The notes below the pieces were generated by a model. That model searched no databases, was not told where the DNA came from, and saw nothing but the letters and a program-made list of their open reading frames with translations. Made by a program: the position numbers and the translations under genes. Below are positions 20-33,995 of a DNA stretch of 64,000 nt, piece by piece. Location: positions 6,269 to 70,268 of the IMG/VR virus record IMGVR_UViG_3300033407_000009. One strand, given 5' to 3'. How positions within the stretch are numbered: position 1 is the first letter of the stretch; every line of letters starts with the position of its first letter. This stretch comes from a virus. Its lineage: Duplodnaviria; Caudoviricetes.

Positions 20-1981
20 ATGATCGAGGGCTACGCCGGCATGCTGGCGCGCACGAATGGCATTGACGTCATTAGGGGAGTTGAGCTTCGACCAACCGCA
101 CTGCTTCCCCCTGGGACAAGCGAGGAAGTTGTCATACTTAATAGAGACGCCCTTGTGTCAGCTGGAGAGCTCAGGGCACACGAAGCAGCGATGGACGCTA
201 GGGCCGCCCAACACTCCAAAGACCTGCACGCTGACGCGCTGCAAAAGTGGGTGAAGAAGCACGCCAAACGCCCGCTGTTCACACGCAAGACAGTCGACGA
301 CTTCGCACAGTACCAGTCCAGCGCCCAGCGGCTGGCGGCCAGCATGTCGGCCATTCACGAGCACTTCGGCCGCAATCTGTCCGAGGGGGGCGTGCCGATC
401 TACCAGGCGTTCCAGGACGCCGGACTCAATGCGGATACGGCGCTCGAACATTTCGCCCGCCGGCACGGGATGAGCATCGAGCAGGCAGCCAGCGCCACGA
501 TACCGGAGGAGACGGCGAAGGGCGCCAAGGCAATGCTCGCTGCCCAACCGGGAACTGAGTACGGCAACCGCATCGGCCAGGCAATGGATCGCTGGATGCA
601 GCACTGGAAGCAGGCAGTTTATTTGCCGTTTCCGGCCTCTGTGGAAAGGAATCTGCACGCGGGACTTTTCATGAATGTCGCATCGGGCGAGATCCCGATA
701 CAGGAGATTCCGAATTTCACGAAGGCTTTGTACCACGTCCAGCGGATGGCGACCGGTAAAGTGGATGACGTTGAATTGCTGCGCGCCATGTACACCAACA
801 ACATCCTGGATCCACGATTCGGTTTTGAAGGAGTCGAGCGGTCGACATTGCGAAAGGCACCTGGCGATCTGGAAATCGCTATTGTTCCCGAGAGCCCCAC
901 GCGACTTCGACAGACATGGAGGCAGGCCCAAGAATCAATTGCCGACGATGGCGTGCGCAACCCACTTGGGTCCCGTGCTGCATACCGTACGTTGCTGGGT
1001 ACCGGCTCGAAAGCAAACCACTGGGTGGAATGGCTCGTTCGCGGATCCATGTTCAAGCATCTGCGTGACAAGGGGTGGGATGACGCTGCCGCCGCGGCGA
1101 AGGTTCGTGAATTGCACTTCGATTATTCTCGTGCGGGAGCAACACCATTCGAGCGCGGTGTAATGAAGCGAGCTGTCCCCTTTTACACGTTTGCAAGAGG
1201 CATCGCGGAATACACCATGCGCGAGCTCATGCGTCGACCGGGAGGCGCATTCGGCCGAAGTATCACGACGTCAGGCAGGGCTGGCGATCCTGGCGTTCTG
1301 GCACCAGAGCATATTGCCCAGGGAGCCGCTATTCCAATGGGAGAGGGCCCGGAAGGATCGCAGACGTTCATCAGCGGACTTGGTCTGCCCTTCGAGGATT
1401 CGTTGCAGTTCCTCAGTGCCGGCGCCGGGCCCGGGGCGGCGCTGCAACATGGACTCTCAGAGATTGCTTCTCGAACCAACCCACTGATCAAAGCTCCCAT
1501 TGAGCTCGCGACGGGGCGTAGCCTCTTTCAGGGACGCGCTCTGGAAGATTTGGATCCGACCTACGCACGCTTGATCAGCAATGTCCGCGATTTGGCGACA
1601 GGAGAAAGGACGCGATCCGTCCGTCCCCTGGCGGGCAGTCAGACATTGGAAGCGATCCTAGGCAACCTTCCGACTTCCAGGTTCGGTACCACCGCGAGAA
1701 CGCTCACCGATCCCCGTAAATGGGAGGATCCGACTTCCATGCTGACGAACCTGTTCACTGGGGTTCGCCGTACGCATGTCAGTCCTGAGCAGATGGAGCA
1801 CCGGGCGCAGCAGCTCGCCGAACAGCGGATGCAACGGGAACTCGGGGCCCGGGAGTTCACCCGACGCTGGATCCCCGAGGATCTCCAAGAACGATTCACT
1901 CCCGACCAGCGGATCCTGGCCGAACAGATGAACGCCCTGCTGGCAACACTGGCCAGAAGGCAGCGGGAGCGATCAAAATGA
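20..1981 (+). CDS. C-terminal part of a large virion/ejection (large polyvalent, LPD38-like) protein; 5'-partial
   Basis: Frame is open to the window edge (YKEIQD precedes the Met). HFDYS...FERGVMKRAVPFYTF and NPLIKAPIELATGRSLFQGR motifs resemble LPD38-type C-termini of phage internal proteins. Confidence 0.55.
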   Translation: MIEGYAGMLARTNGIDVIRGVELRPTALLPPGTSEEVVILNRDALVSAGELRAHEAAMDARAAQHSKDLHADALQKWVKKHAKRPLFTRKTVDDFAQYQSSAQRLAASMSAIHEHFGRNLSEGGVPIYQAFQDAGLNADTALEHFARRHGMSIEQAASATIPEETAKGAKAMLAAQPGTEYGNRIGQAMDRWMQHWKQAVYLPFPASVERNLHAGLFMNVASGEIPIQEIPNFTKALYHVQRMATGKVDDVELLRAMYTNNILDPRFGFEGVERSTLRKAPGDLEIAIVPESPTRLRQTWRQAQESIADDGVRNPLGSRAAYRTLLGTGSKANHWVEWLVRGSMFKHLRDKGWDDAAAAAKVRELHFDYSRAGATPFERGVMKRAVPFYTFARGIAEYTMRELMRRPGGAFGRSITTSGRAGDPGVLAPEHIAQGAAIPMGEGPEGSQTFISGLGLPFEDSLQFLSAGAGPGAALQHGLSEIASRTNPLIKAPIELATGRSLFQGRALEDLDPTYARLISNVRDLATGERTRSVRPLAGSQTLEAILGNLPTSRFGTTARTLTDPRKWEDPTSMLTNLFTGVRRTHVSPEQMEHRAQQLAEQRMQRELGAREFTRRWIPEDLQERFTPDQRILAEQMNALLATLARRQRERSK

Positions 1982-2202
1982 CTCGGCAAAGCTTCCGTGT
2001 GCACCTCGTCTGCGGCAAGACCGACTGGGATGCCATCGAGAAGCGTATCTCTCGGCTCCAGAGACACCAAGTCAAGGCGATCCTGGACGGGTTCGATACC
2101 TGCGAGCGGACTGGGCAAGAGTGCGCCAACTGTCTCTTTGAGTTTCAATCATTGCTCATCAGGGCAATCATTGAGAAGTCAGGGGTTCCGTCTTCTCCTT
2201 GA
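1978..2202 (+). CDS. hypothetical protein
   Basis: ATGA overlap with the upstream stop; 74 aa with CxxxxxxCxxC. Confidence 0.45.
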   Translation: MTRQSFRVHLVCGKTDWDAIEKRISRLQRHQVKAILDGFDTCERTGQECANCLFEFQSLLIRAIIEKSGVPSSP

Positions 2203-2422
2203 CTTCGCTGAGCCTCGTGTCCTCGTGCGAATGGCGAGACCATATGGCACTTGCGCGGCAGAGCATCCTGCCATGCATGTAATTCCCGGAATTGTTCGGC
2301 CCGGACAGATAATCTCCCGGAAGGCGTCCGCCACAAACAGGGCATACGTCGCCAGCAGCATCACGCAATGTTTTCAGTCTCACTTCCAATAGTGCTTTCT
2401 GAAATAACTCTGGCGTCACGCT

Positions 2423-3121
2423 TCACTCCTTCCCGCAAAGGGACTCCAGCCTCTTAAGGATTCTTCGCACCTTGGTCGCCGTCCACAGTTTCGTAGGATC
2501 GTACGCGCCGTTGGTGGGAATGCGTTCGTAATTAAGGGCATCGGCGATTTGCTGGAATCCGCACCCTCCATCGCGTTGTATCCTGATTGCGTCTATCACC
2601 TGCTGCTGCTCTTCGACAGGCACCAGCCTCTTTGAATCGGTCGGATCCAGCGTCCAGCCGTAAGGCACCTGGCCCACTCGTTCGCCTCGCTCGCGCTTCT
2701 CGTGCAGCGCTGCCTTGGTGCGCTCGCTGATCGTCTCTCTTTCCCATTGAGCCACGGTCATCAGCATGTTCAAGACGAGGCGCCCCGAAGCCGTCTTGGT
2801 CGAAACGCAGTCGTCAACCGCCAGCAGCGTCACCGTCTTGCTGAAGTAGCGGGTGATGAGCACCTGCCAATCGGCGAGACTCCGGGTGAGTCGGTCCAGC
2901 TTGGCGACGATAATTCCCTTGGACTTCCGGGAATCGAGTAACCGCATGGCATGCTGGAACCCCGGCCTCTTGAGCGAGCGGCCGCTCCCGCCGATGTCCT
3001 CGATCCAATGCTCGACTTCATGGCCGTACAGCTCGCAGAAGGACTGGATCTTCTTCCGCTGCACTTCCGGGGAGATTTCCTGGATCTCCTTCGATACGCG
3101 GATGTAGCCGATGAGCTTCAT
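2423..3121 (-). CDS. serine recombinase (resolvase/invertase catalytic domain plus short recombinase DNA-binding segment)
   Basis: N-terminal GYIRVS (catalytic Ser), IEDIGGSG, RPGF, AKLDRLTR, helix E ERETISERTKAAL, C-terminal PYGW...W...VRRIL. Confidence 0.9.
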   Translation of the reverse strand: MKLIGYIRVSKEIQEISPEVQRKKIQSFCELYGHEVEHWIEDIGGSGRSLKRPGFQHAMRLLDSRKSKGIIVAKLDRLTRSLADWQVLITRYFSKTVTLLAVDDCVSTKTASGRLVLNMLMTVAQWERETISERTKAALHEKRERGERVGQVPYGWTLDPTDSKRLVPVEEQQQVIDAIRIQRDGGCGFQQIADALNYERIPTNGAYDPTKLWTATKVRRILKRLESLCGKE

Positions 3122-3621
3122 GACAGTGCGGTTTTGTGGAATTTATTCTGGCAGTGGCGACAAATGATCACGGAATCGAGCGGTGCCTCGGATATTGTCG
3201 AATTTCTCGTGCGTCCGCCGCAGTGTGGACAACGTATCGATGCGCTTTGGTAGATCCAGAATCCCGCCAGCCAGAGGATCGGATTGAGGATCACGGCCAA
3301 GATAAATCCGTCGAAACTGCCGCCACTCCCGGCAGCCGAGCCCCACAGCCCCAGCAATGCAGTTATGATTCCCGCCGGCAACATCCAGCCCGAGCGCCCC
3401 CCCGTTGGGAATTGGCCCCCGTGCCCAGCCCAACCACCGCCTGTCCGGTTCCGGCTGGTTCCGGCTGGTTCCGGCTGGTTCTCTCGGACTACCTGGGGTT
3501 TCTCCTGCTCTACCGGATTGCGTGGCGGTTCTGTTGCTGCGAGCGGTTCGGCTGTCGTGTACGCGACAATACATCCGGTTGCGATCGCAGCGATGATGAA
3601 GCAGTAGGCCAGGATGATCAC
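3118..3621 (-). CDS. membrane protein with C-terminal zinc ribbon
   Basis: N-terminal hydrophobic helix, two further TM segments, CPHC...CRHC; overlaps neighbours by ATGA-type coupling. Confidence 0.6.
   Translation of the reverse strand: MIILAYCFIIAAIATGCIVAYTTAEPLAATEPPRNPVEQEKPQVVRENQPEPAGTSRNRTGGGWAGHGGQFPTGGRSGWMLPAGIITALLGLWGSAAGSGGSFDGFILAVILNPILWLAGFWIYQSASIRCPHCGGRTRNSTISEAPLDSVIICRHCQNKFHKTALS
3451..3480. repeat. tandem 10-bp repeat (CCGGCTGGTT)x3 inside the membrane-protein ORF
   Basis: Three exact units, preceded by a partial unit ccggtt at 3445-3450. Confidence 0.9.
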
Positions 3622-5770: not shown

Positions 5771-5844
5771 CGGGGTGTGGCTCAGCCTGGTAGAGCGCCT
5801 GCTTCGGGAGCAGGAGGTCGCAAGTTCAAATCTTGTCACCCCGA
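5771..5844 (+). tRNA. trnP: tRNA-Pro(CGG), CCA not encoded
   Basis: Acceptor CGGGGTG/CACCCCG, D arm GCTC/GAGC, anticodon stem CCTGC/GCAGG with loop TTCGGGA, T arm GCAAG-TTCAAAT-CTTGT. Confidence 0.95.
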
Positions 5845-5851
5845 CTGTTTA

Positions 5852-5887: not shown

Positions 5888-6106
5888 ATGAGCGAGATGG
5901 CAACAGTTCCTGGCTACTACACGATGGACGAGGCCGCCGATGTCCTGAAGGTTTCGGTGAGCCAGATCTCCCGGTACATCTCGGCCGGACGGATGCCGGC
6001 CATCGACCTTGGCAGGCAGAAACTCATTGAGCAGCACGTGGTTCACACGTTTGAGAAGCCGCCAATCGGGAACCCGCAATTCCGCGAGCGGGCAAAAAAA
6101 TCCTGA
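5888..6106 (+). CDS. excisionase-like HTH (HTH_17/MerR-like) DNA-binding protein
   Basis: YYTMDEAADVLKVSVSQISRYISAGRMPAIDLG pattern; next to integrase and tRNA. Confidence 0.8.
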   Translation: MSEMATVPGYYTMDEAADVLKVSVSQISRYISAGRMPAIDLGRQKLIEQHVVHTFEKPPIGNPQFRERAKKS

Positions 6107-6123
6107 TTCTTTCCGAACTCCTC

Positions 6124-6151
6124 TTGCAAGACGCATTCTGAGTTGCATAAT
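6124..6151 (+). promoter_or_regulatory. early rightward promoter
   Basis: TTGCAA-16bp-CATAAT, same architecture as the promoter at 5852. Confidence 0.6.
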
Positions 6152-6181
6152 GTCCTGGTGTTGACGCACTGGGACTCAAAG

Positions 6182-6211
6182 GCCCGGTGCAAATGAGCAC
6201 CGGGCTTTTTT
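6182..6211 (+). terminator. intrinsic terminator/attenuator just downstream of the early promoter
   Basis: GCCCGGTGC-aaatga-GCACCGGGC followed by TTTTTT. Confidence 0.8.
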
Positions 6212-6301
6212 CGTTTGGTAGCCCGGTGCGACGAAATCGGAGTTCGTCACCGGCCCGGCCGGTGCGAAGGAGTTCACCGGCTGATGTTTCTCAAATGCGT
6301 G

Positions 6302-6450
6302 TCATGGAATCGCGTGGTTTCCTAGGGGTGCTCGCAGCCCCCATGGCGAGAAGTCGCACGGCCCAATGTGCCGCGCGAGCCTCTCGCCGAATCCCACAAA
6401 TGCCGGATGAATGGGCCGGCAAGTTCCGAACCCGCCACGCGATTCCATGA
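6302..6450 (+). ncRNA. putative tracrRNA-like scaffold for the Cas12f-like protein
   Basis: Closed by a perfect 16-bp inverted repeat (6302-6317/6435-6450). Contains GCTCGCAG (6330-6337), complementary to the repeat end CTGCGAG+C, and AGTTCCGAACCC (6422-6433), complementary to repeat GGGTTTGGAACT with one G:U. Confidence 0.65.
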
Positions 6451-6471
6451 TGTGCATTTTTGTTTTTCTTT

Positions 6472-6488
6472 GGTTTGGAACTGCGGAG
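6472..6488 (+). repeat. solo fragment of the CRISPR repeat abutting an RBS
   Basis: GGTTTGGAACTGCG (14 nt identical to the repeat) followed by gagAAAGGA and ATG at 6502. Confidence 0.8.
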
Positions 6489-6501
6489 AAAGGACGAACG
6501 C

Positions 6502-7002
6502 ATGACCACGAAAACCACCTCACAAAAGCACGCTCATCTGAAGTCTCTCGCCAAGAAGAATCGTCTCGATGTCTACGAGATGATCCGCCTGGCCAGCGAC
6601 ATTCTTGCCGACCACGAGTACGTCGATTCGCTGGGAGGCGAGGCGGCGGTGCTCGACATGCTGGCCGCTGATGAATTCGCGCACTTTCCCACGCGCCCAG
6701 CCGTCAAGACGATGGTCGACGCGTATCGCGCCAACCCCGATCGCAAGACCTGGAAAGAATACGCATACAGCACGGAGGCGATGGTCGAGCTGGCCAAGCC
6801 GGAGAAGTTGAAGCCCGAAGGAGATCGCACCGACTGGAAGGCATTGGCGAAGGAACGGGAAGCTCGCGTCGCCGAGTTGGAGGCAGTGGTGGCAGACCTT
6901 CGGGCGCGATGCAGCGAGTTGTCTACTCGCGTCGAGGAATTGCTCGGCGTGAATGGCGAACTGCGTGGACGGATCAAGGCGCGACACGAAATGATCGCGT
7001 GA
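6502..7002 (+). CDS. hypothetical protein with C-terminal coiled coil
   Basis: RBS AAAGGA; heptad-rich C-terminus; first gene of the operon. Confidence 0.65.
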   Translation: MTTKTTSQKHAHLKSLAKKNRLDVYEMIRLASDILADHEYVDSLGGEAAVLDMLAADEFAHFPTRPAVKTMVDAYRANPDRKTWKEYAYSTEAMVELAKPEKLKPEGDRTDWKALAKEREARVAELEAVVADLRARCSELSTRVEELLGVNGELRGRIKARHEMIA

Positions 7003-7017
7003 AAAGGAGGTGCCAAG

Positions 7018-8154
7018 GTGAGCGATGGAATTGCAGTGCTCAAACTGAAGGTTACATCGTCGTCAGTCGACCTAGAGCCGGTCGCCGAGATGTGCCGCAA
7101 GGCTCGCAATATGGCTGTCATTGATTGGCTGCTGCGTCAGAAAGGAATGCCACCATCAGAGAGGCAGTCAAAGCGGCATATCAAGCGCAAAGACAAGGCA
7201 GCTGACGCCCCGACGTCTGAATCGAACAAGATTTATCACGCCATCCGGGACGCCGTACCAGCCTTGTCGGCAGACGTGGCATCATCGCTTTCTCAGGCGG
7301 TGAATAGCTATCTCGGCGGCAAGATGGACTGGCGCGAAGGCAAGAGCGAGGACGGCAAGAGGCCGCGCAGGAGAGATGCCATTGCGGAATTCAGGATGAG
7401 GGCTCCGTTCGCGACGGCCTTGGAAATTCCACTTGCCAACAAGAATGTCACGCTGGCATTCACCGACACGATGACCGTCAGGGTGCGGCGAGTGCTGACC
7501 GGCGAGCCGGATATCGAGTTGGTGTTGTCGACCCGGAACATGCCTGCTGGTATCAAGCTGCTAATCCGAGACGTGATCGACGGTCGGAAGAAGCTGGCCG
7601 ATTCGAAGCTGATCCTTCGCCAGGAAAGCTGGTACGTCCATCTGCCTATCTCATGCCCCGCTGTCCCACTTGATCCCGAGCGCGTGGCAACTCTATCGCC
7701 GATCCAGGGAGATGGCCGCTACGACCGACCGTTCCGTCTGAAGCTGCCCAACCAAAATCGCGAGATCGGAGACGGCTGGTACTTGAAGAGCCAGGCGGAG
7801 CGATTCGTGGGATTGCGAAAGCAGATTGGGTGGCGCTACCGGCAGCGCCAGGGAGCCGGACACGGCCGCAAGAAAGCGGACGCGGCAGTGCGTAAGCGCA
7901 TCAAGCAGTTTGCCGACATTGTGTCGGAGGTCAGGCGGCGCATGATCCGGGACATCGTGTCGTGGTGCGAGCGGCGGCAGTGCGGACTGCTGGTCTATCA
8001 CGAGCCGACGTTGCCCCTCAGGACGAAGTGCTGGTTTGCGGCGAATGGCGTGGATTGGGATTGGACTCGGTTTGTCGGCGACTTGGAAAACTCCTGCAAG
8101 CGAAATGGCATTCGGCTCGACAAGCGGCAGCTGAAGCTAAAGGACGTCGCATGA
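7018..8154 (+). CDS. cas12f: Cas12f/TnpB-family protein, predicted nuclease-dead and C-terminally truncated
   Basis: Collinear with Cas12f1 as recalled: KIYHAIR..LSADVASSLSQAV (REC), SWYVHL..LDPERVATLSP (RuvC-I GIDLG, Asp lost), GAGHGRKK (conserved GHGR), GLLVYHEPT (RuvC-II), WDWTRFVGDLENSCKRNGI. Ends before the Zn finger/RuvC-III. GTG start with AAGGAGG; adjacent CRISPR array. Confidence 0.8.
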   Translation: MSDGIAVLKLKVTSSSVDLEPVAEMCRKARNMAVIDWLLRQKGMPPSERQSKRHIKRKDKAADAPTSESNKIYHAIRDAVPALSADVASSLSQAVNSYLGGKMDWREGKSEDGKRPRRRDAIAEFRMRAPFATALEIPLANKNVTLAFTDTMTVRVRRVLTGEPDIELVLSTRNMPAGIKLLIRDVIDGRKKLADSKLILRQESWYVHLPISCPAVPLDPERVATLSPIQGDGRYDRPFRLKLPNQNREIGDGWYLKSQAERFVGLRKQIGWRYRQRQGAGHGRKKADAAVRKRIKQFADIVSEVRRRMIRDIVSWCERRQCGLLVYHEPTLPLRTKCWFAANGVDWDWTRFVGDLENSCKRNGIRLDKRQLKLKDVA

Positions 8155-8441
8155 AAGCGTTGCCGTGCGCGTGTTGCGCAAGGGAAGTGCGTATCCGGGA
8201 TCGGTCACGATTCTTACGGATGGTGCGCGAGCGACGCCAACCGCTGTGCGAGCAGTGCCGTCGCTACGTAAGAGGGGGGGTCGCTCGCATCGCGCAAGTC
8301 CCTGGAGAGCATGATGATCCGAAGTTGTTCCTGGTCAGGGGTCGTGGAAAACACGCACGCAAGAGGAAGGCTCTCGCAAGTCAGCCTCTGGCGCGTGTCT
8401 GCGCAACGGCTTGCGAGGCCGGAGTCGCAGTGGATGAGTGA
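8151..8441 (+). CDS. small zinc-ribbon protein translationally coupled to the Cas12f-like gene
   Basis: ATGA overlap; CACC...CEQC; stop codon lies inside CRISPR repeat 1. Confidence 0.5.
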   Translation: MKALPCACCAREVRIRDRSRFLRMVRERRQPLCEQCRRYVRGGVARIAQVPGEHDDPKLFLVRGRGKHARKRKALASQPLARVCATACEAGVAVDE

Positions 8442-8647
8442 AGGGTTTGGAACTGCGAGCCGGTCCCACCAGCGATACCGCCAGCCGCGGAATCGTCGCA
8501 GTGGATGAGTGAAGGGTTTGGAACTGCGAGCAAAGGTTGACTGCGATGCGAGAAATCATCTAGTCGCAGTGGATGAGTGAAGGGTTTGGAACTGCGAGCG
8601 CCTCGCAGGATGGCGCAGTGGATGAGTGAAGGGTTTGGAACTGCGAG
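8424..8647 (+). CRISPR. mini CRISPR array: 4 x 36-bp repeats GTCGCAGTGGATGAGTGAAGGGTTTGGAACTGCGAG, spacers of 35, 32 and 13 nt
   Basis: Repeats at 8424-8459, 8495-8530, 8563-8598 and 8612-8647 (last has T2G). Terminal inverted TCGCAGT/ACTGCGA. No cas1/cas2 in the window. Confidence 0.95.
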
Positions 8648-8723
8648 TACGAACTGTGCCCCCAGGTGGGAGTACGTATCCCGCCGAAGCTGGTGGCACG
8701 AGCACAAAAGGAGGCGATTTAAA

Positions 8724-9095
8724 ATGTCCCATGATCATCACAAGGCCGCCGTCAAACACATCCTTCGGCGCGTCGTGGAGTCTGGCGATTTCCGCTGGTA
8801 CATGTTGCATACCGAGAGTTTTTCGTTGTGCCTGGCGGCATATGCAGAGGATCTCGGCATCACGAAGGAAGAGGCGGAGAGGCAACTCGACGTAGCCATG
8901 TCGCGGTACGACCCTAGACAACCCCTCGTCGAAGAGCAGCGGCTACAGATTGAGCGTGCCTCCGAGGTGATATACGAGATGCGAGAGGGTGGCAAGCTCG
9001 ACGAGGAGACATGGAGTGATATCTACAACGCACTTCACAGCGAGCCACCGCCGAAGCTGGTGGCACGAGCGATTGCGAACGAGAAAGGACTCTGA
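8724..9095 (+). CDS. hypothetical protein flanked by a 23-bp direct repeat
   Basis: RBS AAGGAGG; CCGCCGAAGCTGGTGGCACGAGC at 8681-8703 and 9048-9070. Confidence 0.7.
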   Translation: MSHDHHKAAVKHILRRVVESGDFRWYMLHTESFSLCLAAYAEDLGITKEEAERQLDVAMSRYDPRQPLVEEQRLQIERASEVIYEMREGGKLDEETWSDIYNALHSEPPPKLVARAIANEKGL

Positions 9096-11768: not shown

Positions 11769-12056
11769 ATGAATCCGAAAGTAGTGGTGACAACGAAGCA
11801 CCGCGGAGTCTTTTTCGGCGAGCTGATCGAGAGAAACCGCACTGAGCACGGCACCGAAGTCGTGCTGGCAGACGCTCGTGTCTGCATCTACTGGACGCAG
11901 GAGACTTGCGGCTTTGTCGGCCTGGCGGCGACGGGGCCGTTGGATGGGTGCCGCATCAGTCGTGCTGCTCCGCGACTGGAGGTGCTCGACGTGACGTCGA
12001 TTCTGACTTGCAGCGAAGAGGCCATCGCAGTATGGGAGGCCAGCAAATGGAATTGA
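11769..12056 (+). CDS. conserved phage protein (DUF6948-like)
   Basis: VVVTT..RGVFFGEL...LADARVCIYW...GFVGLAATGP...SRI pattern, typically upstream of Gly-rich repeat genes. Confidence 0.6.
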   Translation: MNPKVVVTTKHRGVFFGELIERNRTEHGTEVVLADARVCIYWTQETCGFVGLAATGPLDGCRISRAAPRLEVLDVTSILTCSEEAIAVWEASKWN

Positions 12057-12739
12057 CCCAACGCATGCTGCAGCGTGCCTGGACGGCCGGTGCATGTCGC
12101 GAGGCTATTGCACAGCTGAAAGTCGGGCAGCCGCTCCCAGGCGTGCTGGCTGATTATCTCGGCTGGTGTAAGCACGCGATTCCGCCGACCGAAGTAGACG
12201 CAATAGCTCGCTCGCTGTCAAACGATCGTGTCGTGGAGCTGGATGGGATCCATCCATATGTGCTCGGCTCTCACGGCTACGGCGACGGCTCCGGCTCCGG
12301 CTACGGCTACGGCAACGGCTCCGGCTACGGCTCCGGCTACGGCTACGGCTCCGGCTACGGCTCCGGCTCCGGCTCCGGCTCCGGCTACGGCTACGGCTCC
12401 GGCTACGGCTACGGCTACGGCTACGGCTACGGCTCCGGCTCCGGCTCCGGCGACGGCTACGGCGACGGCTACGGCTCCGGCGACGGCTCCGGCTACGGCG
12501 ACGGCTACGGCTCCGGCTCCGGCTACGGCGACGGCTACGGCTCCGGCTCCGGCTACGGCTACGGCTACGGCTACGGCGACGGCTACGGCTCCGGCGACGG
12601 CTCCGGCTCCGGCTACGGCTACGGCTCCGGCTCCGGCTACGGCTACGGCAACGGCTACGGCTCCGGCTCCGGCTCCGGCTCCGGCTACGGCTACGGCGAT
12701 GGCTACTGCGAATCGGTTTTGGAGAAGGTTCTTGGCTGA
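12047..12739 (+). CDS. Gly/Tyr/Ser/Asp-rich low-complexity repeat protein
   Basis: Short N-terminal domain (AGACREAI) then ~145 aa of G-Y/G-S/G-D dipeptides. Confidence 0.8.
   Translation: MELTQRMLQRAWTAGACREAIAQLKVGQPLPGVLADYLGWCKHAIPPTEVDAIARSLSNDRVVELDGIHPYVLGSHGYGDGSGSGYGYGNGSGYGSGYGYGSGYGSGSGSGSGYGYGSGYGYGYGYGYGSGSGSGDGYGDGYGSGDGSGYGDGYGSGSGYGDGYGSGSGYGYGYGYGDGYGSGDGSGSGYGYGSGSGYGYGNGYGSGSGSGSGYGYGDGYCESVLEKVLG
12275..12708. repeat. hexamer-unit microsatellite (GGCTAC/GGCTCC/GGCGAC/GGCAAC)n
   Basis: Visible directly. Confidence 0.95.
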
Positions 12740-12773
12740 GGGGACACGAGTTTTCATTCGCTGGAGGACAACG

Positions 12774-13082
12774 ATGCGAACGATTTGGAAGTATGAGATT
12801 CCATTTCCTGTCGACCATTTCGAGCGCATCATGCCGATGCCGGGACGAGTCGTTCGGGTTGGCATGCAGAACGGCAGGCCGCATATGTGGTGCGAGGTCG
12901 ACGACAACACCGAATTAGCGGATCGGATTTTCCTCGTTCGCGGCACAGGACATCCGATACCAGACGACGCTTGCTGGTTGGGTACATGGAAAGACGGAGG
13001 GTTTGTGTGGCATCTGTTCGATGCGGCCAGGCCTTTTTGCCCATCGCACGAGGAGCGAATCACGCTATCGCGGAGGCAATGA
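12774..13082 (+). CDS. conserved phage hypothetical protein (MRTIWKY...VGMQNGRPHMWCEVD...GTGH family)
   Basis: RBS GGAGG; recurrent phage motif. Confidence 0.65.
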   Translation: MRTIWKYEIPFPVDHFERIMPMPGRVVRVGMQNGRPHMWCEVDDNTELADRIFLVRGTGHPIPDDACWLGTWKDGGFVWHLFDAARPFCPSHEERITLSRRQ

Positions 13083-19736: not shown

Positions 19737-20536
19737 TGGTTCTCGACAGCAAAATCGACATCGTCCGGGACGCTTTCAACATTCATCGTCTGGACGACTG
19801 GACGCGAGTTGAGACGGACGACATTGTCGCGCTGCACGGCGTGGGGGACGTGACGCTCCAGCACATCCGTCTCTATCTGGCAGGCCAAGGCCGAACACTG
19901 CACAACGACCGCACGCCCGGCTACTGGCTGGACCATCTCGGCACGGCCAAGGTGGGGCAACAGATCAGCGATGAGGACAAGTCGATCATCTTCCCGTGCG
20001 CCGTCCTGATCGACACCGCTGAGACGCAGCCGTTCACCTTCCATGGCCTGCGATGCGATGCCGACCAGCAGCATCGGCCGCTCATCGTCAAGACGGAATG
20101 GCGAGCACTTGGCCGGCATCCCGACTCGTTGGGCGACTATTCCCTGGACGGCTACGTCGGCCGCTGCCATGTCGAGCGGAAGTCCGTGAAAGACTTCCAG
20201 GGGACATTGATGGAGTTCGGCCAAGACGGGCGCCGCGAGCGTTTCGAGAGCGAGCTGTCGAACCTGGAGAAGCTCGAAGCAGCGGCCGTCGTCGTCGAGG
20301 GGACACTGCTGCGAGCGATCACCGTCCAGCACGAATACGGCAAGAAGCCTAGCCAGGAAGCGGCCAAACTGCTCATGCGATCAGTGCTCGCCTACCAGCA
20401 GGATTACGACGTACCCTGGCTGTTCTGCGACGATCGACGCATGGCCGAGGTTGCCACGTTCCGGTTTCTGGAGCGATTCTGGAGGAAGGATCAGGAGAAG
20501 AGGAAAGAAGCAGAGAGGATGTTGGCGGGGATTTAG
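19736..20536 (+). CDS. ERCC4/XPF-family nuclease (probable junction resolvase)
   Basis: VLIDTAETQP, GDYS, VERKS, VVVEG motifs; N-terminal HhH-like LHGVGDVTL; GTG start with GGGGAGG. Confidence 0.85.
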   Translation: MVLDSKIDIVRDAFNIHRLDDWTRVETDDIVALHGVGDVTLQHIRLYLAGQGRTLHNDRTPGYWLDHLGTAKVGQQISDEDKSIIFPCAVLIDTAETQPFTFHGLRCDADQQHRPLIVKTEWRALGRHPDSLGDYSLDGYVGRCHVERKSVKDFQGTLMEFGQDGRRERFESELSNLEKLEAAAVVVEGTLLRAITVQHEYGKKPSQEAAKLLMRSVLAYQQDYDVPWLFCDDRRMAEVATFRFLERFWRKDQEKRKEAERMLAGI

Positions 20537-20564
20537 TGCAGCGGATGAGGTTTGGAACTGCGAG
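20536..20564 (+). repeat. solo degenerate CRISPR repeat upstream of the primase
   Basis: GTGCAGCGGATGA-GGTTTGGAACTGCGAG equals the array repeat with an internal ~6-nt deletion; the last 16 nt are identical. Confidence 0.9.
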
Positions 20565-20614: not shown

Positions 20615-23095
20615 ATGGCACGCAAACGCGACGAAGAGATTGAAAAACTGAAGGCTGTCTGTAGCGGACGATGGCCGGAAATCATATCTGCCTTGTGCAA
20701 CGTCGATGCCGGCTACTTCGATGGCCGGCACAAGGAATGCCCGAGATGCGGCGGGAAGGATCGCTACAGGTGTTTCGACGACGATAGCGGAGGAGCGATC
20801 TGCGGCCAGTGTTTTGACCGTAAGAACGGCGACGGCTTCTCGACGATCGGGTGGCTAACTGGGCGCACGTCGGACAAAGACTTCCCCAAGATCGCCCAGG
20901 AAGTCGCGAAGTTTGTCGGCTACACGCTGAACGGCAAGTACAAGAAGAAGCAAAAGGACCCCGCTGAGAACCTCAAATTCGAGGACTGGCACGAAGGATT
21001 GGTTGCCTACTGGTGCGCGAACCATGAGCCCATTCAACCCGCGGCGGTGGCGGCATTCGGTGGCCGACTCGCCACCTACCGCGGCCAGCATAAGGTGATC
21101 GCCTTCCCGGTACGCGGGCCCGACCTGGACGCCAGCCAGCCAGTGGGATGGGTGATCTCGGCTCTCAATGGGAAGCTCCCCGTTTGGCACAGCGCCGACA
21201 AGACGCCCAGCGATTACGTGAAGGTGAAGACGACCAGTGGCAGCAAGTCTGGTGTCATTTGCGCCGATCCGCCGGAAGGCTTCGACACGCTCTGGAAGTC
21301 TGAGGGGCTGACGGACTCATTGGCGCTTCAGCAGATGACGCCGGGGAAACACTGGGTTGCGACCAACTCGGCCGGGGCCGGCGAGAAGCCGTTCCCTTGG
21401 CTGTGCCAGATGGCCAAAGGCAGGCGGGCCCTCGTCCTGCACGACTGCGACGAGCCCGGGCAGCGCGGCGCCACCTACTCAGACAGCGGCGACGGGAAGA
21501 AGCGGCCAGGGTGGTGCCCGGAATTCGTCCGCGCGGAAGCCGCCGAAGTCCGCAACATCGTCCTGCCATACCCCATCACCCCCACAAAGGGTAAGGATTT
21601 CCGCGACTGGCTGCTGGCTGGCCACGGGATCGAGGATCTGACCGAGATCGTCGAGAAGGCCCCCAAGTTCCAGCGCGACGAGGAATCAGAGACGGAGGTT
21701 GACGAAGCCGTTGACGATCCACACCGTCTAGCCCGCGTCAACCTGCATCGCTATGCCGTCCGCAATAGCGGCGCGACGATCAAATTCTGGCGAGGGGAAT
21801 GGTTCGCTTGGAAAAGGACGCGATACCGGAAGATCAGTGACGGAGAGTTGCGAGCCAAGATGTCAGCCAGCGTCAAGGAACAATTCAACGACGACTGGAA
21901 GTCCACCAAAGACAGTCAGGACGAGCTGAAGCCTGTTCGTAAGGTGACACAGAACTTAATCAACAACGTCATTCGAGCTACTGAATCCCTTTGCATCATC
22001 CCTGAGCATGTCGAGATGGGAACTTGGATCGACGGCCGGCTGCGGGAGAAGCGGAACTATATCTCATTCCAGAATGGCATTCTGGACATCGAGGCGACCT
22101 TGGATCAGAAGAAGGAGATTCTGACCGAGCATTCCCTAAACTGGTTCAGCACGCTCTGCCTGCCATACGACTTTAATCCAGATGCAGAGTGCCCGAAATG
22201 GTTGGCATTCCTACGGCGGAACCTGGAAAACGACATCGAGCGTATCTACCTGCTTCAGGAGTGGGCTGGCTACCTTCTCCTACCGGACACCGGATTTCAG
22301 AAGTTCCTCGTCCTTGAAGGTGAGGGCGCGAACGGCAAGTCCGTCTATTGTGCCGGCATCGAGGCCATGCTGGGACGCGACAATTGCAGTCATGTTTCCC
22401 TGGAAGTCTTCGGGGATCGATTCAGCCGCACCCAAACGTTGGGGAAGTTGGTGAACATCGCGGCCGACGTCGGCGAGATGGACAAGGTAGCTGAGGGATT
22501 CGTCAAATCGTTCACCAGCGGCGAGACGATGTTCTTCGATCGGAAGGGGATCAGCGGCGTCGATACCTATCCCACAGCCAGGCTGATGCTGGCCTGCAAC
22601 AACCGTCCGCGGTTCTCGGATCGGTCTTCGGGAATAACAAGGCGGATGATGATTTGCCCTTGGCGCGTCCAGATCGATCCGGAAGAGCGGATCTCCAACA
22701 TGGACAAGGCTTGGTGGTGGGAACAGGCGGGAGAACTCCCGGGAATGTTTCGATGGGCATTCTATGGGTTAATCAGGTTGCGAAATCAGCAGAGCTTTAC
22801 AGAGCCATCCATTTGCCGTGAGGCACTGGCCGAATACCAGGACGAAATGAACCCGGCTCGCGTATTCCTTCTCGAGGTAACGGCAAGCAGAGGTGGCGCA
22901 AGCGCTTCATCAGCTGAACTGTATGAGCGGTACAAGCAGTGGTGCAAAGACAACGGATACCGACCGCTGGCAAGCAGTTCGCTCGGGAAAGAGATTCGCA
23001 GGATCTACCCACACATCAAACGTGAGAAGATGACTGTCGGCGGGGTGCGTGAATGGAGGTATTCGGGAATGGAGACGAAAGGAGCTGACTGGTGA
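20615..23095 (+). CDS. P4-alpha-like primase-helicase (Zn finger + TOPRIM + D5/SF3 helicase)
   Basis: HKECPRCGGKDRYRC Zn finger, SEGLTD and DCD TOPRIM motifs, GEGANGKS Walker A, SGE...RK...NNRPRFSD...RRM. Confidence 0.93.
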   Translation: MARKRDEEIEKLKAVCSGRWPEIISALCNVDAGYFDGRHKECPRCGGKDRYRCFDDDSGGAICGQCFDRKNGDGFSTIGWLTGRTSDKDFPKIAQEVAKFVGYTLNGKYKKKQKDPAENLKFEDWHEGLVAYWCANHEPIQPAAVAAFGGRLATYRGQHKVIAFPVRGPDLDASQPVGWVISALNGKLPVWHSADKTPSDYVKVKTTSGSKSGVICADPPEGFDTLWKSEGLTDSLALQQMTPGKHWVATNSAGAGEKPFPWLCQMAKGRRALVLHDCDEPGQRGATYSDSGDGKKRPGWCPEFVRAEAAEVRNIVLPYPITPTKGKDFRDWLLAGHGIEDLTEIVEKAPKFQRDEESETEVDEAVDDPHRLARVNLHRYAVRNSGATIKFWRGEWFAWKRTRYRKISDGELRAKMSASVKEQFNDDWKSTKDSQDELKPVRKVTQNLINNVIRATESLCIIPEHVEMGTWIDGRLREKRNYISFQNGILDIEATLDQKKEILTEHSLNWFSTLCLPYDFNPDAECPKWLAFLRRNLENDIERIYLLQEWAGYLLLPDTGFQKFLVLEGEGANGKSVYCAGIEAMLGRDNCSHVSLEVFGDRFSRTQTLGKLVNIAADVGEMDKVAEGFVKSFTSGETMFFDRKGISGVDTYPTARLMLACNNRPRFSDRSSGITRRMMICPWRVQIDPEERISNMDKAWWWEQAGELPGMFRWAFYGLIRLRNQQSFTEPSICREALAEYQDEMNPARVFLLEVTASRGGASASSAELYERYKQWCKDNGYRPLASSSLGKEIRRIYPHIKREKMTVGGVREWRYSGMETKGADW

Positions 23096-23322
23096 AGTGC
23101 CAGGTATGTAAAGCGGAGATTGAAAAACGTGTCGGAACGAAGTTTTGCTCCGGCAAGTGTCGCCAGAAGGCGTACCGCCAAAAAAGCAAAGGAAGCGTTC
23201 TCAAAATGAACATGGAAACCAACCTTTGTCCAGGGTGCGGAATGGAAATTTTCAAGCCAGGATACTGCTCCAATGCCTGCAAGCAGAAATCTTACAGAAG
23301 TTGTGCACGTTACCTTGCGTAA
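23092..23322 (+). CDS. small Cys-rich protein
   Basis: CQVC..FCSGKCRQKAYR, CPGC..YCSNACKQ. Confidence 0.55.
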   Translation: MKCQVCKAEIEKRVGTKFCSGKCRQKAYRQKSKGSVLKMNMETNLCPGCGMEIFKPGYCSNACKQKSYRSCARYLA

Positions 23323-23730
23323 CGATTCGCGTAACGGTTGTTACGCAAAACCGTTACGCTGTTACCCAAAACCGTTACGCGAAGGCTGTTCGCGTAACGA
23401 TTCGCGTAACGGTGTTACGCAAAACCGTTACGCTGTTACTCGAAATCGTTACGCGAAATCCAAGATTGCAAAAGTGCGTCAAAAATGAGTCGGCAGCTTG
23501 AGATTAAAAAGCGTTACGCGAAGTCTCGATTGCCCCAGATTTTACCCAGTTTCGCCCTGACGGCGACCCAGCTTAAGTCGTTTCATATCAACGACTGCCC
23601 TAGGTGCCCCAGTTTTTCTTACTCCTTACTACTCTAAAGAGATAGTTTCACAATCAAATACATAAAACACATTAGAGAAAAGTATGGGGGGGTATATAGA
23701 GAACTGGGCTTCTGGGACTACTGGGACACT
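23308..23730. other. putative replication origin (iterons plus AT-rich core)
   Basis: About 14 GTAAC/GTTAC pentamers at 23309-23517 including a ~49-bp duplication. Then CCCAG repeats (23531-23612) and inverted CTGGG repeats (23704-23725) flank an AT-rich stretch. Directly after the primase. Confidence 0.7.
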
Positions 23731-26688: not shown

Positions 26689-26976
26689 TTCAATGGTGTG
26701 GGGGCAGGCGTCCCAGTCGCACGTGTCCGGGTCGCGATGGGCGTCGGCCAAGCAGGCGGGGTCGGACCGGAGCAGCTCGAGCGCCTGCCGCGTCAATGGG
26801 TCGATGGTCATGTGTACCTTCCCGCGGGTCACCCGCCCGCGGAGAAAATGCCGGCGGGTATCCGCGGCCGGCTCGCGGGGGTGATCGTCATCTCGGGTGT
26901 ATCGGTCGTGGCGGATCCGGTGGTCCGGGCACTGGCGTCTCATGCTGGACCCGTTCATGTTTCCTCCTTCTCAATA

Positions 26977-30196: not shown

Positions 30197-30715
30197 ATGG
30201 AAACCACGACGCGAGAAGAGTTTGCAAGTCTCTACCCCCTCATCCGCCACATTGCCCGCCGGCGGATCACGCGCAGTCTGGCACTGGCCGGAATCTCCAA
30301 TCCAACCGAGCTCCAGGATCGACTGGACAACGCGATAGCTCACTCGTGGGTGCTCTACTGCCGCCATCGGCCGACAATGGAGTCGGCCCGGGAATGTGCG
30401 GTCAAGGCCGCCAGTCTGGCTGCGCGCAAGACTCACCTAGTCGGTGGCACCCGCCGGCCCGGCTACGTCGACGCGATGGATCGGAGGGATTTCCGCAAGG
30501 TGGATCTGTCCACCGTCCCAGTCGACACCGAGCTCCGCCAGCGGGACGATTCAGACGCCCAGTCTCGGCTACTCGACTCACTCCCGGCTGTCCTTCGGCC
30601 GATCGCTGTACTGCTGATGGCAGGCCTATCACGTGTCGAGATTGCCAGACGGCGGCACTGCTCGCCAGCCACGATTACCCGCCGCTGCGATTCGATCGCC
30701 GAGTTGATCGGGTAG
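30197..30715 (+). CDS. ECF/sigma70-like factor (region 4 HTH)
   Basis: LLDSLPAVLRPIAVLLMAGLSRVEIARRRHCSPATITRR (sigma r4) with a region-2-like N-terminus; RBS GGAGG. Confidence 0.7.
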   Translation: METTTREEFASLYPLIRHIARRRITRSLALAGISNPTELQDRLDNAIAHSWVLYCRHRPTMESARECAVKAASLAARKTHLVGGTRRPGYVDAMDRRDFRKVDLSTVPVDTELRQRDDSDAQSRLLDSLPAVLRPIAVLLMAGLSRVEIARRRHCSPATITRRCDSIAELIG

Positions 30716-33102: not shown

Positions 33103-33248
33103 TTGACTAAAGTCCAGAAACTTCCCACCATTTCCAGTAGGTGATTTGGAACTGCGAGCAGTAGCGGGTGGTAAGGCCACCCGAACTCACCAGCGTTAGC
33201 GGACACGAAAACCCGCGGCTGCCTTTCATGGCGGCTGGCGGGTTTTTT
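33103..33248 (+). ncRNA. putative stand-alone crRNA-like small RNA (promoter + solo repeat fragment + hairpin + terminator)
   Basis: TTGACT-17bp-CACCAT; TTTGGAACTGCGAGC at 33145-33159; hairpin CGGGTGG/CCACCCG; terminator AACCCGCGGCTGCC...GGCGGCTGGCGGGTTTTTT ending at 33248. Confidence 0.6.
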
Positions 33249-33632
33249 CGTTCTTGGAGGGCACCCGTGGCTCTCATGCTGTCATGGCTGTTGGGGTTTG
33301 TTGCACGGGACGTCTATGTGCGAGTGGACTTCATTGAGCGAAACCATGCCCGCAATATCGATCAGTATGTGTTCTGGGACATCCACCGAGACGGGATGTA
33401 CCACGTCGTGGCCTGGCGGCTGGCCGAGAAGTGCGGATCGATCACGAGGACAGGAACCGGCTGGGATCTCCGCTGGCGCGAAGGCGGGATGAGGTACTCG
33501 GCAAGGGGGACGTGCTACCGGGAAACCTGGACGCGCCAGGATGTGGAGTTGGCCGATAGGGAGTTCTTTCCGGAGCACGAGCGCCGGGGATTGCGATAGT
33601 TGGGGCCATGACTTTACAAGGAGATCAATTGC

Positions 33633-33995
33633 ATGTCGGAAGTAACTTCCCACAAGGTGAATGGATTGAACGAATTGCTTCGCATTGAAGTGCTGGACGA
33701 TCCTGGTCCCGGAAACGCCTGCCACCAATATTCTATCACCCCCACCATTGGCAACGCCTCTGGTGTCAGGATTGATTTTCAGAAAGGACCTCTCAAGGAA
33801 AGCCCTCCCAACGGATTGAGCAACGAGTCGCTCCTTGCCATCGTCGAGCATCGCTTGCAGGGATTCCAGTCCGGCATTTATGCCTGCCGTGAGAACGCGC
33901 TGGCGTTGACGAAGATTCAAGAGGCGATGCACTGGCTTCACCACCGAACTCGCGAGCGAGTCGCCCGTGGAGTCGAGGGCACATCACAGAAGTAA
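33633..33995 (+). CDS. tad1: Tad1-family anti-defence sponge protein
   Basis: GPGNACHQY...FQKGP.KE...NG...LLAIVEHRLQGFQSG.YACRENALALTKIQEAMHWL..RT.ER..RGVEGT is collinear with Tad1 as recalled. Confidence 0.85.
   Translation: MSEVTSHKVNGLNELLRIEVLDDPGPGNACHQYSITPTIGNASGVRIDFQKGPLKESPPNGLSNESLLAIVEHRLQGFQSGIYACRENALALTKIQEAMHWLHHRTRERVARGVEGTSQK

Follow-up and report, generated by a model that had tools for sequence, protein, structure and literature searches.

A repeat-derived crRNA handle on the ribosome-binding site of a phage operon encoding a predicted nuclease-dead Cas12f-like protein

Why should a phage carry a fragment of a CRISPR-like (clustered regularly interspaced short palindromic repeats) repeat directly on the ribosome-binding site (RBS) of the operon that encodes its own putative effector? 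The question is raised by a 64-kb stretch of DNA (hereafter, the window) that is part of a 70-kb IMG/VR virus record (IMGVR_UViG_3300033407_000009, Caudoviricetes). In this window, the fragment, a candidate CRISPR RNA (crRNA) handle at position 6472, lies between an RNA resembling a trans-activating CRISPR RNA (tracrRNA, or tracr) and the operon orfA-orfB-orfC (Table 1). An earlier note, based on the sequence of the window alone, had proposed that the 5' untranslated region (UTR) of this operon folds in cis into a complete tracr:repeat scaffold through which the effector could regulate its own synthesis. We compared the window with related loci (L0xx) and with two related viral records (G001 and G002; L018 belongs to G001, a 73.6-kb viral contig). 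The reading that we rank first, although tentatively and at somewhat less than an even chance, is translational occlusion, in which the tracr and the dead effector assemble on the handle of the operon mRNA and exert negative feedback.

The handle and its tracrRNA-like partner

The 14 nucleotides at 6472–6485 (GGTTTGGAACTGCG) match the 3' part of the 38-nt array repeat at every position (14/14) and are followed by G and then AG up to position 6488; the 5' half of the repeat is lost at this site. The Shine-Dalgarno (SD) sequence and the AUG come next and occupy the place where a guide would sit relative to the handle, so that the arrangement of fragment, SD sequence and ATG at 6472–6504 described in the earlier note can be read directly from the sequence. 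The ATG at 6502 was taken as the true start of orfA because the N-terminus that it opens (K-T-T-S-Q-K-H-A-E-L-K) is conserved in orfA homologues. The exact 14-mer occurs six times in the window (four times in the array at 8423–8648, and at 6472 and 20549), and a seventh copy at 33143 has one mismatch; all seven are on the + strand. Because this count was reached in none of 100 shuffles, with no occurrences in the reversed-pattern control and an expectation of ~5e-4 exact copies by chance (our own arithmetic), the copies are not due to chance. The exact 16-mer had six single, unrelated-looking matches in viral_contigs.

Homologues of the tracrRNA-like RNA were found in 10 related loci, each closed by a long stem of differing sequence, and the block 6325–6433 aligns with loci whose orfB is only 39–49% identical. 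In the consensus fold of nine homologues, 12 of the 20 consensus pairs show compensatory changes. Both anti-repeats change together with the repeat of their own lineage (the window, L016, L015, L021, L017, L018, L024, L043, and L026), and the lineage variants of the repeat (TTTGGAAC, TTGGGTTAG, GTGTGAGGA, CTTGGTGA, and TAAGGTGC) are each paired by that lineage's own anti-repeat. For example, L024 has TGTGAC/GTCAC where others have TGCGAG/CTCGCA. The tracrRNA of Cas12f forms two repeat:anti-repeat duplexes, as seen in structures of Cas12f single-guide RNAs, and by its sequence the region 6293–6459 has the same layout. The covariation of two anti-repeats with the repeat in ~8 related lineages is what makes this RNA tracrRNA-like, and this identity in turn makes the fragment at 6472 the tracr-pairing handle of a crRNA. 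The upstream tracr partner postulated in the earlier note is thus conserved, structured and covarying with the repeat. In an Rfam search at gathering thresholds, the tRNA was the sole match and no known RNA family was found over 6293–6459. A candidate role of the anti-repeat as a DNA guide directed against the repeat motif was rejected, given that the anti-repeat is not at the 3' end of the RNA and that the covariation extends to another segment within a hairpin loop, a pattern known from Cas12f repeat:anti-repeat duplexes.

Anti-repeat 1 (6419–6432) and the handle can form a duplex of 13 bp with one G:U pair and one bulge: 11 bp between 6422–6432 and 6482–6472 (including G6428:U6476) and, after the bulged A6421, the pairs C6420:G6483 and G6419:C6484. 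Its predicted energy is −20.0 kcal/mol, and a value of −17 kcal/mol or lower is reached by 0.56% of random 21-mers of the window. The earlier note had extended this duplex over 6422–6433, which holds for 6422–6432, whereas 6433 finds a partner only in the array repeats, which have an additional G; the leader copy has T at the corresponding position 6471. In the predicted ensemble of the tracr, anti-repeat 1 is mostly unpaired, and it would therefore be single-stranded and ready to pair in trans. Directly 3' of the closing stem, the U-rich tract at 6459–6471 possibly terminates the tracr; in L017, a 22-bp stem followed by T8 stands at the equivalent position. The terminator-like character of closing stem and U-tract, which is of textbook form in L017, suggests that most of the tracr is released as a separate RNA.

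Table 1 Features of the effector locus, solo handles and upstream genes (positions in the window)
Feature	Position	Strand	Remarks
tracrRNA-like structured RNA	6293–6459	+	fold z = −4.06, homologues, covariation
Closing stem, 25 bp	6293–6317 / 6434–6458
Anti-repeat 2, GCTCGCAG	6330–6337		in hairpin loop; complementary to repeat end
Anti-repeat 1	6419–6433		complementary to repeat stretch preceding its end
U-rich tract, TTGTTTTTCTTT	6459–6471	+	directly 3' of closing stem
Solo crRNA handle (candidate), tracr-pairing 3' part of repeat	6472–6488	+	GGTTTGGAACTGCG + inserted G + AG
SD AAAGGA (6489–6494) and orfA ATG (6502–6504)	6489–6504	+	positions +1 to +16 after handle
Operon orfA-orfB-orfC		+	3' of 395-nt gap
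orfA, 166 aa, coiled-coil, unknown family	6502–7002	+	first operon gene; conserved 5' of orfB in relatives
orfB, 378 aa, predicted nuclease-dead Cas12f-like	7018–8154	+	profile, predicted fold, RuvC alignment
orfC, 96 aa, CxxC...CxxC zinc-ribbon	8151–8441	+	overlaps orfB by ATGA
Mini CRISPR-like array, four 38-nt repeats, spacers of 33, 30 and 11 nt	8423–8648	+
Second solo repeat (handle 20549), near full length, internal deletion	20536–20564	+	between ERCC4 stop and primase-helicase ATG at 20615
Third solo handle, GATTTGGAACTGCGAGC	33143–33159	+	intergenic; two hairpins follow, the second strong and terminator-like (33208–33250)
tRNA-Pro	5771–5845
Small HTH_17 gene	5888–6106		precedes 395-nt gap before orfA

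The effector operon and its array

Searched singly against Pfam, NCBIfam, and PHROGs, the three operon proteins gave no match, and the Cas12f identity of orfB was seen only by means of a family profile and a fold search. We found 214 relatives of orfB; a single-protein search of viral_contigs returned nothing, and genome_contigs gave no relatives by protein pattern or tracr pattern. A profile built from 44 orfB relatives matched Cas12f chains of the PDB (E = 3e-16), including a deposited nuclease-deactivated Cas12f. The AlphaFold (AF2) model of orfB (predicted local distance difference test, pLDDT, 91) had AsCas12f1 as its best Foldseek match (E = 4e-18, TMq 0.63) and also matched the nuclease-dead Cas12f (dCas12f) structure 9n9c (E = 1e-16). 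When 23 close relatives are aligned, none has the RuvC-I aspartate (T/L-S-P at its position) and the RuvC-II position is variable (E/D/Q/K/R); the RuvC-III/Zn-ribbon part is missing from orfB. Because the RuvC triad is not conserved, orfB was grouped with the dead forms and not with the nucleases. Profile, model, and RuvC alignment thus give the effector assumed in the earlier note a predicted identity, that of a nuclease-dead Cas12f-like protein with a WED-REC-RuvC fold.

The gene order of orfA, orfB, and an overlapping Zn-ribbon orfC is conserved in relatives, and a gene of 92–108 aa overlaps the end of orfB in L014, L015, L016, and L042. Arrays with a period of ~72 nt and unrelated spacers follow orfB/orfC in L016, L020, L021, L023, L026, and L029, and also in L018. 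An array beside the effector gene and a tracrRNA-like RNA complementary to its repeat are features that the locus shares with type V-F CRISPR loci. Downstream of the last array repeat of the window comes the 5' UTR of the gene at 8724–9095. Spacers S1–S4 and the three solo 'guides' had no above-chance match in G000, G001, G002 or the related loci compared, and exact 22-mers of S1 or S2 were absent from viral_contigs.

The window sequence was also found in several soil metagenome runs, but in no RNA run. In soil run X3, an array variant carries a 5-nt insertion after 8565, and one contig has repeat 3 fused to the beginning of spacer 2 (8565–8599); the mini-array is thus polymorphic between samples. 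A different array organization is present in L018 (3700–7460), where two systems stand in tandem. In the first, a tracr and an orfC-like gene accompany an array of eight repeats, one spacer of which is duplicated. In the second, a 453-aa dCas12f-like gene, the RBS of which lies ~35 nt after the last repeat, is accompanied by a separate mini-array of three copies of another repeat; the 453-aa protein is without an orfC-like part.

Feedback on the operon and competing readings

The phage contains three solo handles (6472, 20549, and 33143), all on the coding strand. Those at 6472 and 33143 retain only the tracr-pairing part of the repeat, as expected if pairing matters. In relatives, handles recur within the effector operon: in L015/L014 and in L017, the handle ends 29 nt 5' of the orfB ATG, with the SD sequence at +20 to +25, and L043 has two handles between orfA and orfB as well as a degenerate handle-like element (AGAACTGCGA) in the orfA leader, which directly follows the tracr U-tract at the same place as in the window. 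These three further loci represent at least two lineages; counting the window, handles at the start of effector-operon genes have arisen or been kept in at least three lineages, without being universal. This recurrence near the RBS favours feedback regulation of the kind that the earlier note had envisaged. Beyond the operon, G001 has two solo handles located 44–52 kb from its arrays; the first lies 37 nt 5' of an RBS-bearing ATG and is preceded by a T-rich tract as in the window, and the second begins one base after an ATG. In L024, 17 handle copies are spread over 12 kb on one strand, all of them intergenic, and two of the 17 abut start codons. The handle at 6472 would accordingly be one of a wider set of handle-tagged phage transcripts that includes those at 20549 and 33143 and at the last array repeat.

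L024 also has a compact 'array' (7216–7446) that consists of the 14–16-nt handle alone, without the 5' half of the repeat, with spacers of 17–29 nt and a period of 31–43 nt. Paired handles occur in several of its intergenic regions (also 1343–3184 and 7902–8121), and two of the spacers are identical.

In the reading of translational occlusion, the tracrRNA-like RNA, either as a free molecule or as the 5'-terminal part of an operon transcript made by read-through, would pair with the handle in the leader, and the dCas12f-like orfB, probably together with orfC, would bind the duplex as it would a crRNA:tracrRNA. Given that the SD sequence and the AUG sit in the place of the guide, the bound complex would cover both and hinder ribosome loading, resulting in negative feedback on the operon. 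We regard control of the operon through tracr and effector binding at its leader as plausible from the arrangement of these elements; binding to the mRNA, the negative sign of the effect, and an action on translation rather than on transcription are the parts that we infer. Several points weigh against this reading. Compared to the array repeat, the leader handle has an inserted G at 6486 and an A replacing C at 6489, which would weaken the second duplex, in which the 3' end of the repeat (CTGCGAGC) pairs with the loop of the tracr at 6330–6337 (GCTCGCAG). The U-tract at 6459–6471 is also predicted to pair with the SD region in a local hairpin, such that the leader alone can hide the SD sequence (−9 to −13 kcal/mol, not better than shuffles, z = −0.82), and tracr pairing could then open the SD sequence and activate instead of repress. 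Tight orfA-orfB junctions without an in-operon handle in L016, L021, L022, and L024 show that the handle is not essential to the system. Contigs from four soil runs represent the same phage and do not differ at all over 6317–7294, and natural compensatory variation, and with it a within-species test, is therefore lacking. Finally, the same facts fit an action on DNA by a guide derived from the mRNA.

In a broader reading, which we consider possible but unlikely, phage mRNAs would carry their own guide: a handle-tagged transcript would pair with the tracrRNA, load the dead Cas12f-like protein, and direct it to act on the transcript or its gene. The tagged units would, speculatively, be the effector operon, the primase-helicase gene, the gene that follows the array, and a small RNA at 33143, with the handle at 6472 as the autoregulatory node; up to 17 tagged sites in 12 kb are present in relatives. 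If true, such a network would allow sets of genes to be switched off or on in a timed and self-addressed manner, with no need for separate guide genes. More generally, if the binding of handle-tagged mRNAs is real, a type V effector would serve as an RNA-programmed translational regulator, or a self-guided transcriptional regulator, of viral genes.

The alternatives to translational occlusion follow in descending order of probability. An effect at the DNA level is distinctly unlikely in our estimate. Here, the leader would provide a crRNA-like guide, and the R-loop formed with it by the dead effector at the start of its own gene would block transcription or, with a sigma factor, start it, much like the autorepression of CreR or tracr-L in the first case and the activation by dCas12f-sigmaE in the second. 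Cas12f-type effectors bind DNA by means of the guide 3' of the handle, which is the position of the RBS, and dead Cas12f relatives are known DNA-binding regulators, some of which target their own locus (PMC12259090). However, the sole match of this guide in the 70-kb record is its own locus, where the 5' flank is the repeat end (GCGGAG). This reading needs that flank to act as the target-adjacent motif (TAM), but, by analogy with the array, the repeat end should not be one, because every array spacer would otherwise target itself. No match of at least 11 nt to 6489–6530 was found elsewhere in the 70-kb record, and none near 6100–6300. The phage does encode an open reading frame (ORF) resembling extracytoplasmic function (ECF) sigma factors (30197–30715), but it lies 22 kb from the effector operon, has no homologue in G001 or G002, and matches PF07638 weakly (E = 3e-4; 21.0 bits, just under the 21.1-bit cut-off). 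In addition, transcription in the Fta system starts 46 bp downstream of the TAM, and a start site at that distance in the phage would lie inside orfA.

Pairing strictly in cis, in which the read-through 5' UTR would form a natural single-guide or omegaRNA-like RNA and the effector would act only on that fold, is improbable even though part of its premise is sound. Only 43 nt separate the tracr closing stem from the ATG, which leaves no room for a promoter, so that transcripts of the operon would have to run through the tracr and would include it together with the handle. Both elements lie in line on the same strand, joined by a 38-nt linker, and the handle-like element of L043 occupies the same place. 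The predicted fold, however, does not support the complete cis scaffold that had been proposed. Folding 6415–6495 locally does yield the claimed duplex, although not better than shuffles (z = −0.86), whereas the minimum free energy (MFE) structure of 6285–6515 (−96.5 kcal/mol) consists of the 25-bp closing stem and the local leader hairpin, without the cis duplex. A nested cis fold (−85.5 kcal/mol) is 11 kcal/mol worse than the MFE, which means that a pseudoknot is needed. The sum of the closing stem (−80.8 kcal/mol) and the duplex of anti-repeat 1 with the leader (−20.0 kcal/mol) puts such a pseudoknot at ~−101 kcal/mol before penalty, lower than the MFE, but its 12-nt linker would have to span the 25-bp closing stem.

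The distribution of handles also argues against cis pairing as a required form. The terminator-like end would release most of the tracr separately, and the handles at 20549 and 33143 (14–27 kb away) and those of G001 and L024 are so far from the tracr that they can pair in trans only. The in-operon handles of L015, L017, and L043 lie ~0.5 kb downstream of the tracr, and the four relatives named above have none. We conclude that the pairing is well grounded, whereas the arrangement in cis has no support as a required form and would be a local convenience at most.

We give little credence to the view that the handle is a neutral relic, left over from recombination or array decay and without a function of its own. 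It is degenerate, having lost its 5' half and gained a G, four relatives have no in-operon handle, and the polymorphism of the array between samples implies that repeats recombine. Decay would not, however, be expected to preserve only the tracr-pairing half with 14/14 identity, to leave all solo copies on one strand and in 5' UTRs or start regions, or to place handles before effector-operon genes in independent lineages. Least probable by far is a DNA motif read by a protein, either an operator or a promoter element for the phage ECF-like sigma factor: the copies do lie 5' of + strand genes in one orientation, the phage has a sigma-like gene, and the motif contains GGAAC, which resembles an ECF −35 element, but the promoter was rejected since no common −10 element follows the seven copies at a fixed distance; against the motif in general, the variable core covaries with two separate anti-repeat segments of a nearby RNA in ~8 lineages, the arrays have a CRISPR-like 72-nt period with unrelated spacers, and some copies overlap start codons or coding sequence.

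Known systems and the phage setting

Autogenous translational repression by mimicry of an RNA ligand is well known for the ribosomal proteins L1, S8, and L20 and for gp32 and RegA of phage T4. As in these cases, a copy of what would be the normal RNA binding site of the protein lies over the RBS of its own mRNA; unlike them, the protein is an effector of CRISPR origin, and the mimic would be recognized only together with another RNA, the tracr. Among CRISPR systems, CreR and CreA are Cas-regulating, crRNA-resembling RNAs that derive from degenerate mini-CRISPRs of types I-B, I-E, and V-A (10.1101/2023.03.10.532045). Like CreR, the phage element is a solitary degenerate repeat beside an effector operon that keeps its handle-forming part and for which autoregulation is proposed. 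However, the spacer-like part of CreR matches a separate cas-promoter site flanked by a protospacer-adjacent motif (PAM) and acts on DNA, whereas there is no second site for the phage handle, its 'spacer' is the RBS and start codon, the effector is predicted to be nuclease-dead by nature, and the system, which requires a tracrRNA, is carried by a phage.

The long-form tracrRNA of Streptococcus pyogenes Cas9, tracr-L, is a natural single guide (10.1101/2020.05.21.102756). In both cases, a tracrRNA-linked RNA heads the cas operon, autoregulation is proposed, and one molecule contains, or in the phage would contain, scaffold and guide-like parts. In the type II tracr-L, an internal fold replaces the crRNA and promoter DNA is targeted by an 11-nt match and a PAM, whereas the phage system is of type V-F, its cis fold is not the predicted MFE structure, and its likely target is the RBS of the mRNA itself. 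Noncanonical crRNAs that originate from cellular mRNAs can pair with the tracrRNA anti-repeat and be taken up by the effector (PMC8224270), and the solo handles in phage 5' UTRs are likewise complementary to the anti-repeat by sequence. The former are fortuitous, weak matches in Cas9 hosts; the phage handles are near-perfect repeat copies at start regions that recur across relatives.

With respect to the effector, dCas12f proteins include forms that associate with sigmaE in RNA-guided transcription and a CRISPR-array-associated cluster that is predicted to repress (PMC12259090; PDB 9n9c). The predicted orfB protein resembles them in its Cas12f fold, its small size, its C-terminally shortened, inactivated RuvC, and its adjacent rudimentary array. 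The dCas12f-sigmaE systems use single chimeric guide RNAs without a tracrRNA, are operonic with rpoE for an ECF sigma factor with a CTD extension, and occur on Bacteroidota chromosomes (PMC12259090), in contrast to the phage clade with its tracrRNA, conserved orfA, separate Zn-ribbon orfC, and dispersed solo handles, and with no linked sigma factor. The element is thus a variation on known systems (CreR, tracr-L, noncanonical crRNAs, and dCas12f), and our literature search found no paper on this phage clade or on handle-tagged mRNAs for a Cas12f-type protein. Cas autoregulation by degenerate repeats and the exaptation of dead Cas12f and TnpB are recent discoveries, made mostly on bacterial chromosomes; they meet here in a phage with a dead Cas12f-like protein, a tracrRNA, and copies of the crRNA handle on the RBSs of phage genes, including that of its own operon. 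The system is directly testable, its parts being small (an RNA of 165 nt, a handle of 17 nt, and two proteins, of 378 and 96 aa), and its natural covariation suggests which compensatory mutations to make.

Farther along the phage are genes for RecD2-like, ERCC4, and D5-type primase-helicase proteins and a portal gene. Pfam scans of ~40 ORFs, not all of those in the 70-kb record, detected no Cas1, Cas2 or Cas4 domains. Between the HTH_17 gene and the tracr (6124–6209), a strong terminator hairpin (6178–6209) lies within 30 nt downstream of a sequence that matches a sigma70-like promoter (TTGCAA-16-CATAAT). Either the hairpin terminates the HTH gene and the promoter match is fortuitous, or the two make up a very short transcript or an attenuator 5' of the tracr. 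A serine recombinase gene (Resolvase and Recombinase domains; 2423–3621, − strand), which adjoins a Zn-ribbon ORF and lies 2–3 kb from the tRNA-Pro gene, may be the integration module of a temperate phage. The ORF at 33633–33995 has a sub-threshold match to the Acb2/Tad1 hairpin domain (E = 4e-5; 24 bits vs. a cut-off of 27), a hint of such a protein and no proof of one.

Three further repeat structures were observed. Directly after the D5-type primase-helicase gene, tandem and inverted repeats that contain GTTACGC, with periods of 21 and 74 nt (23317–23457), look like the iterons of a replication origin. The hexamer ACGGCT is present in ~72 copies at 12195–12795, within overlapping long ORFs (11906–13082), and represents either a low-complexity repeat protein or a non-coding repeat. 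A 22-nt GC-rich palindromic unit (CCCGCGGGTCACCCGCCCGCGG) occurs in three identical copies with conserved flanks at 26821, 27207, and 28298, and these are probably terminators or hairpins similar to repetitive extragenic palindromic (REP) elements.

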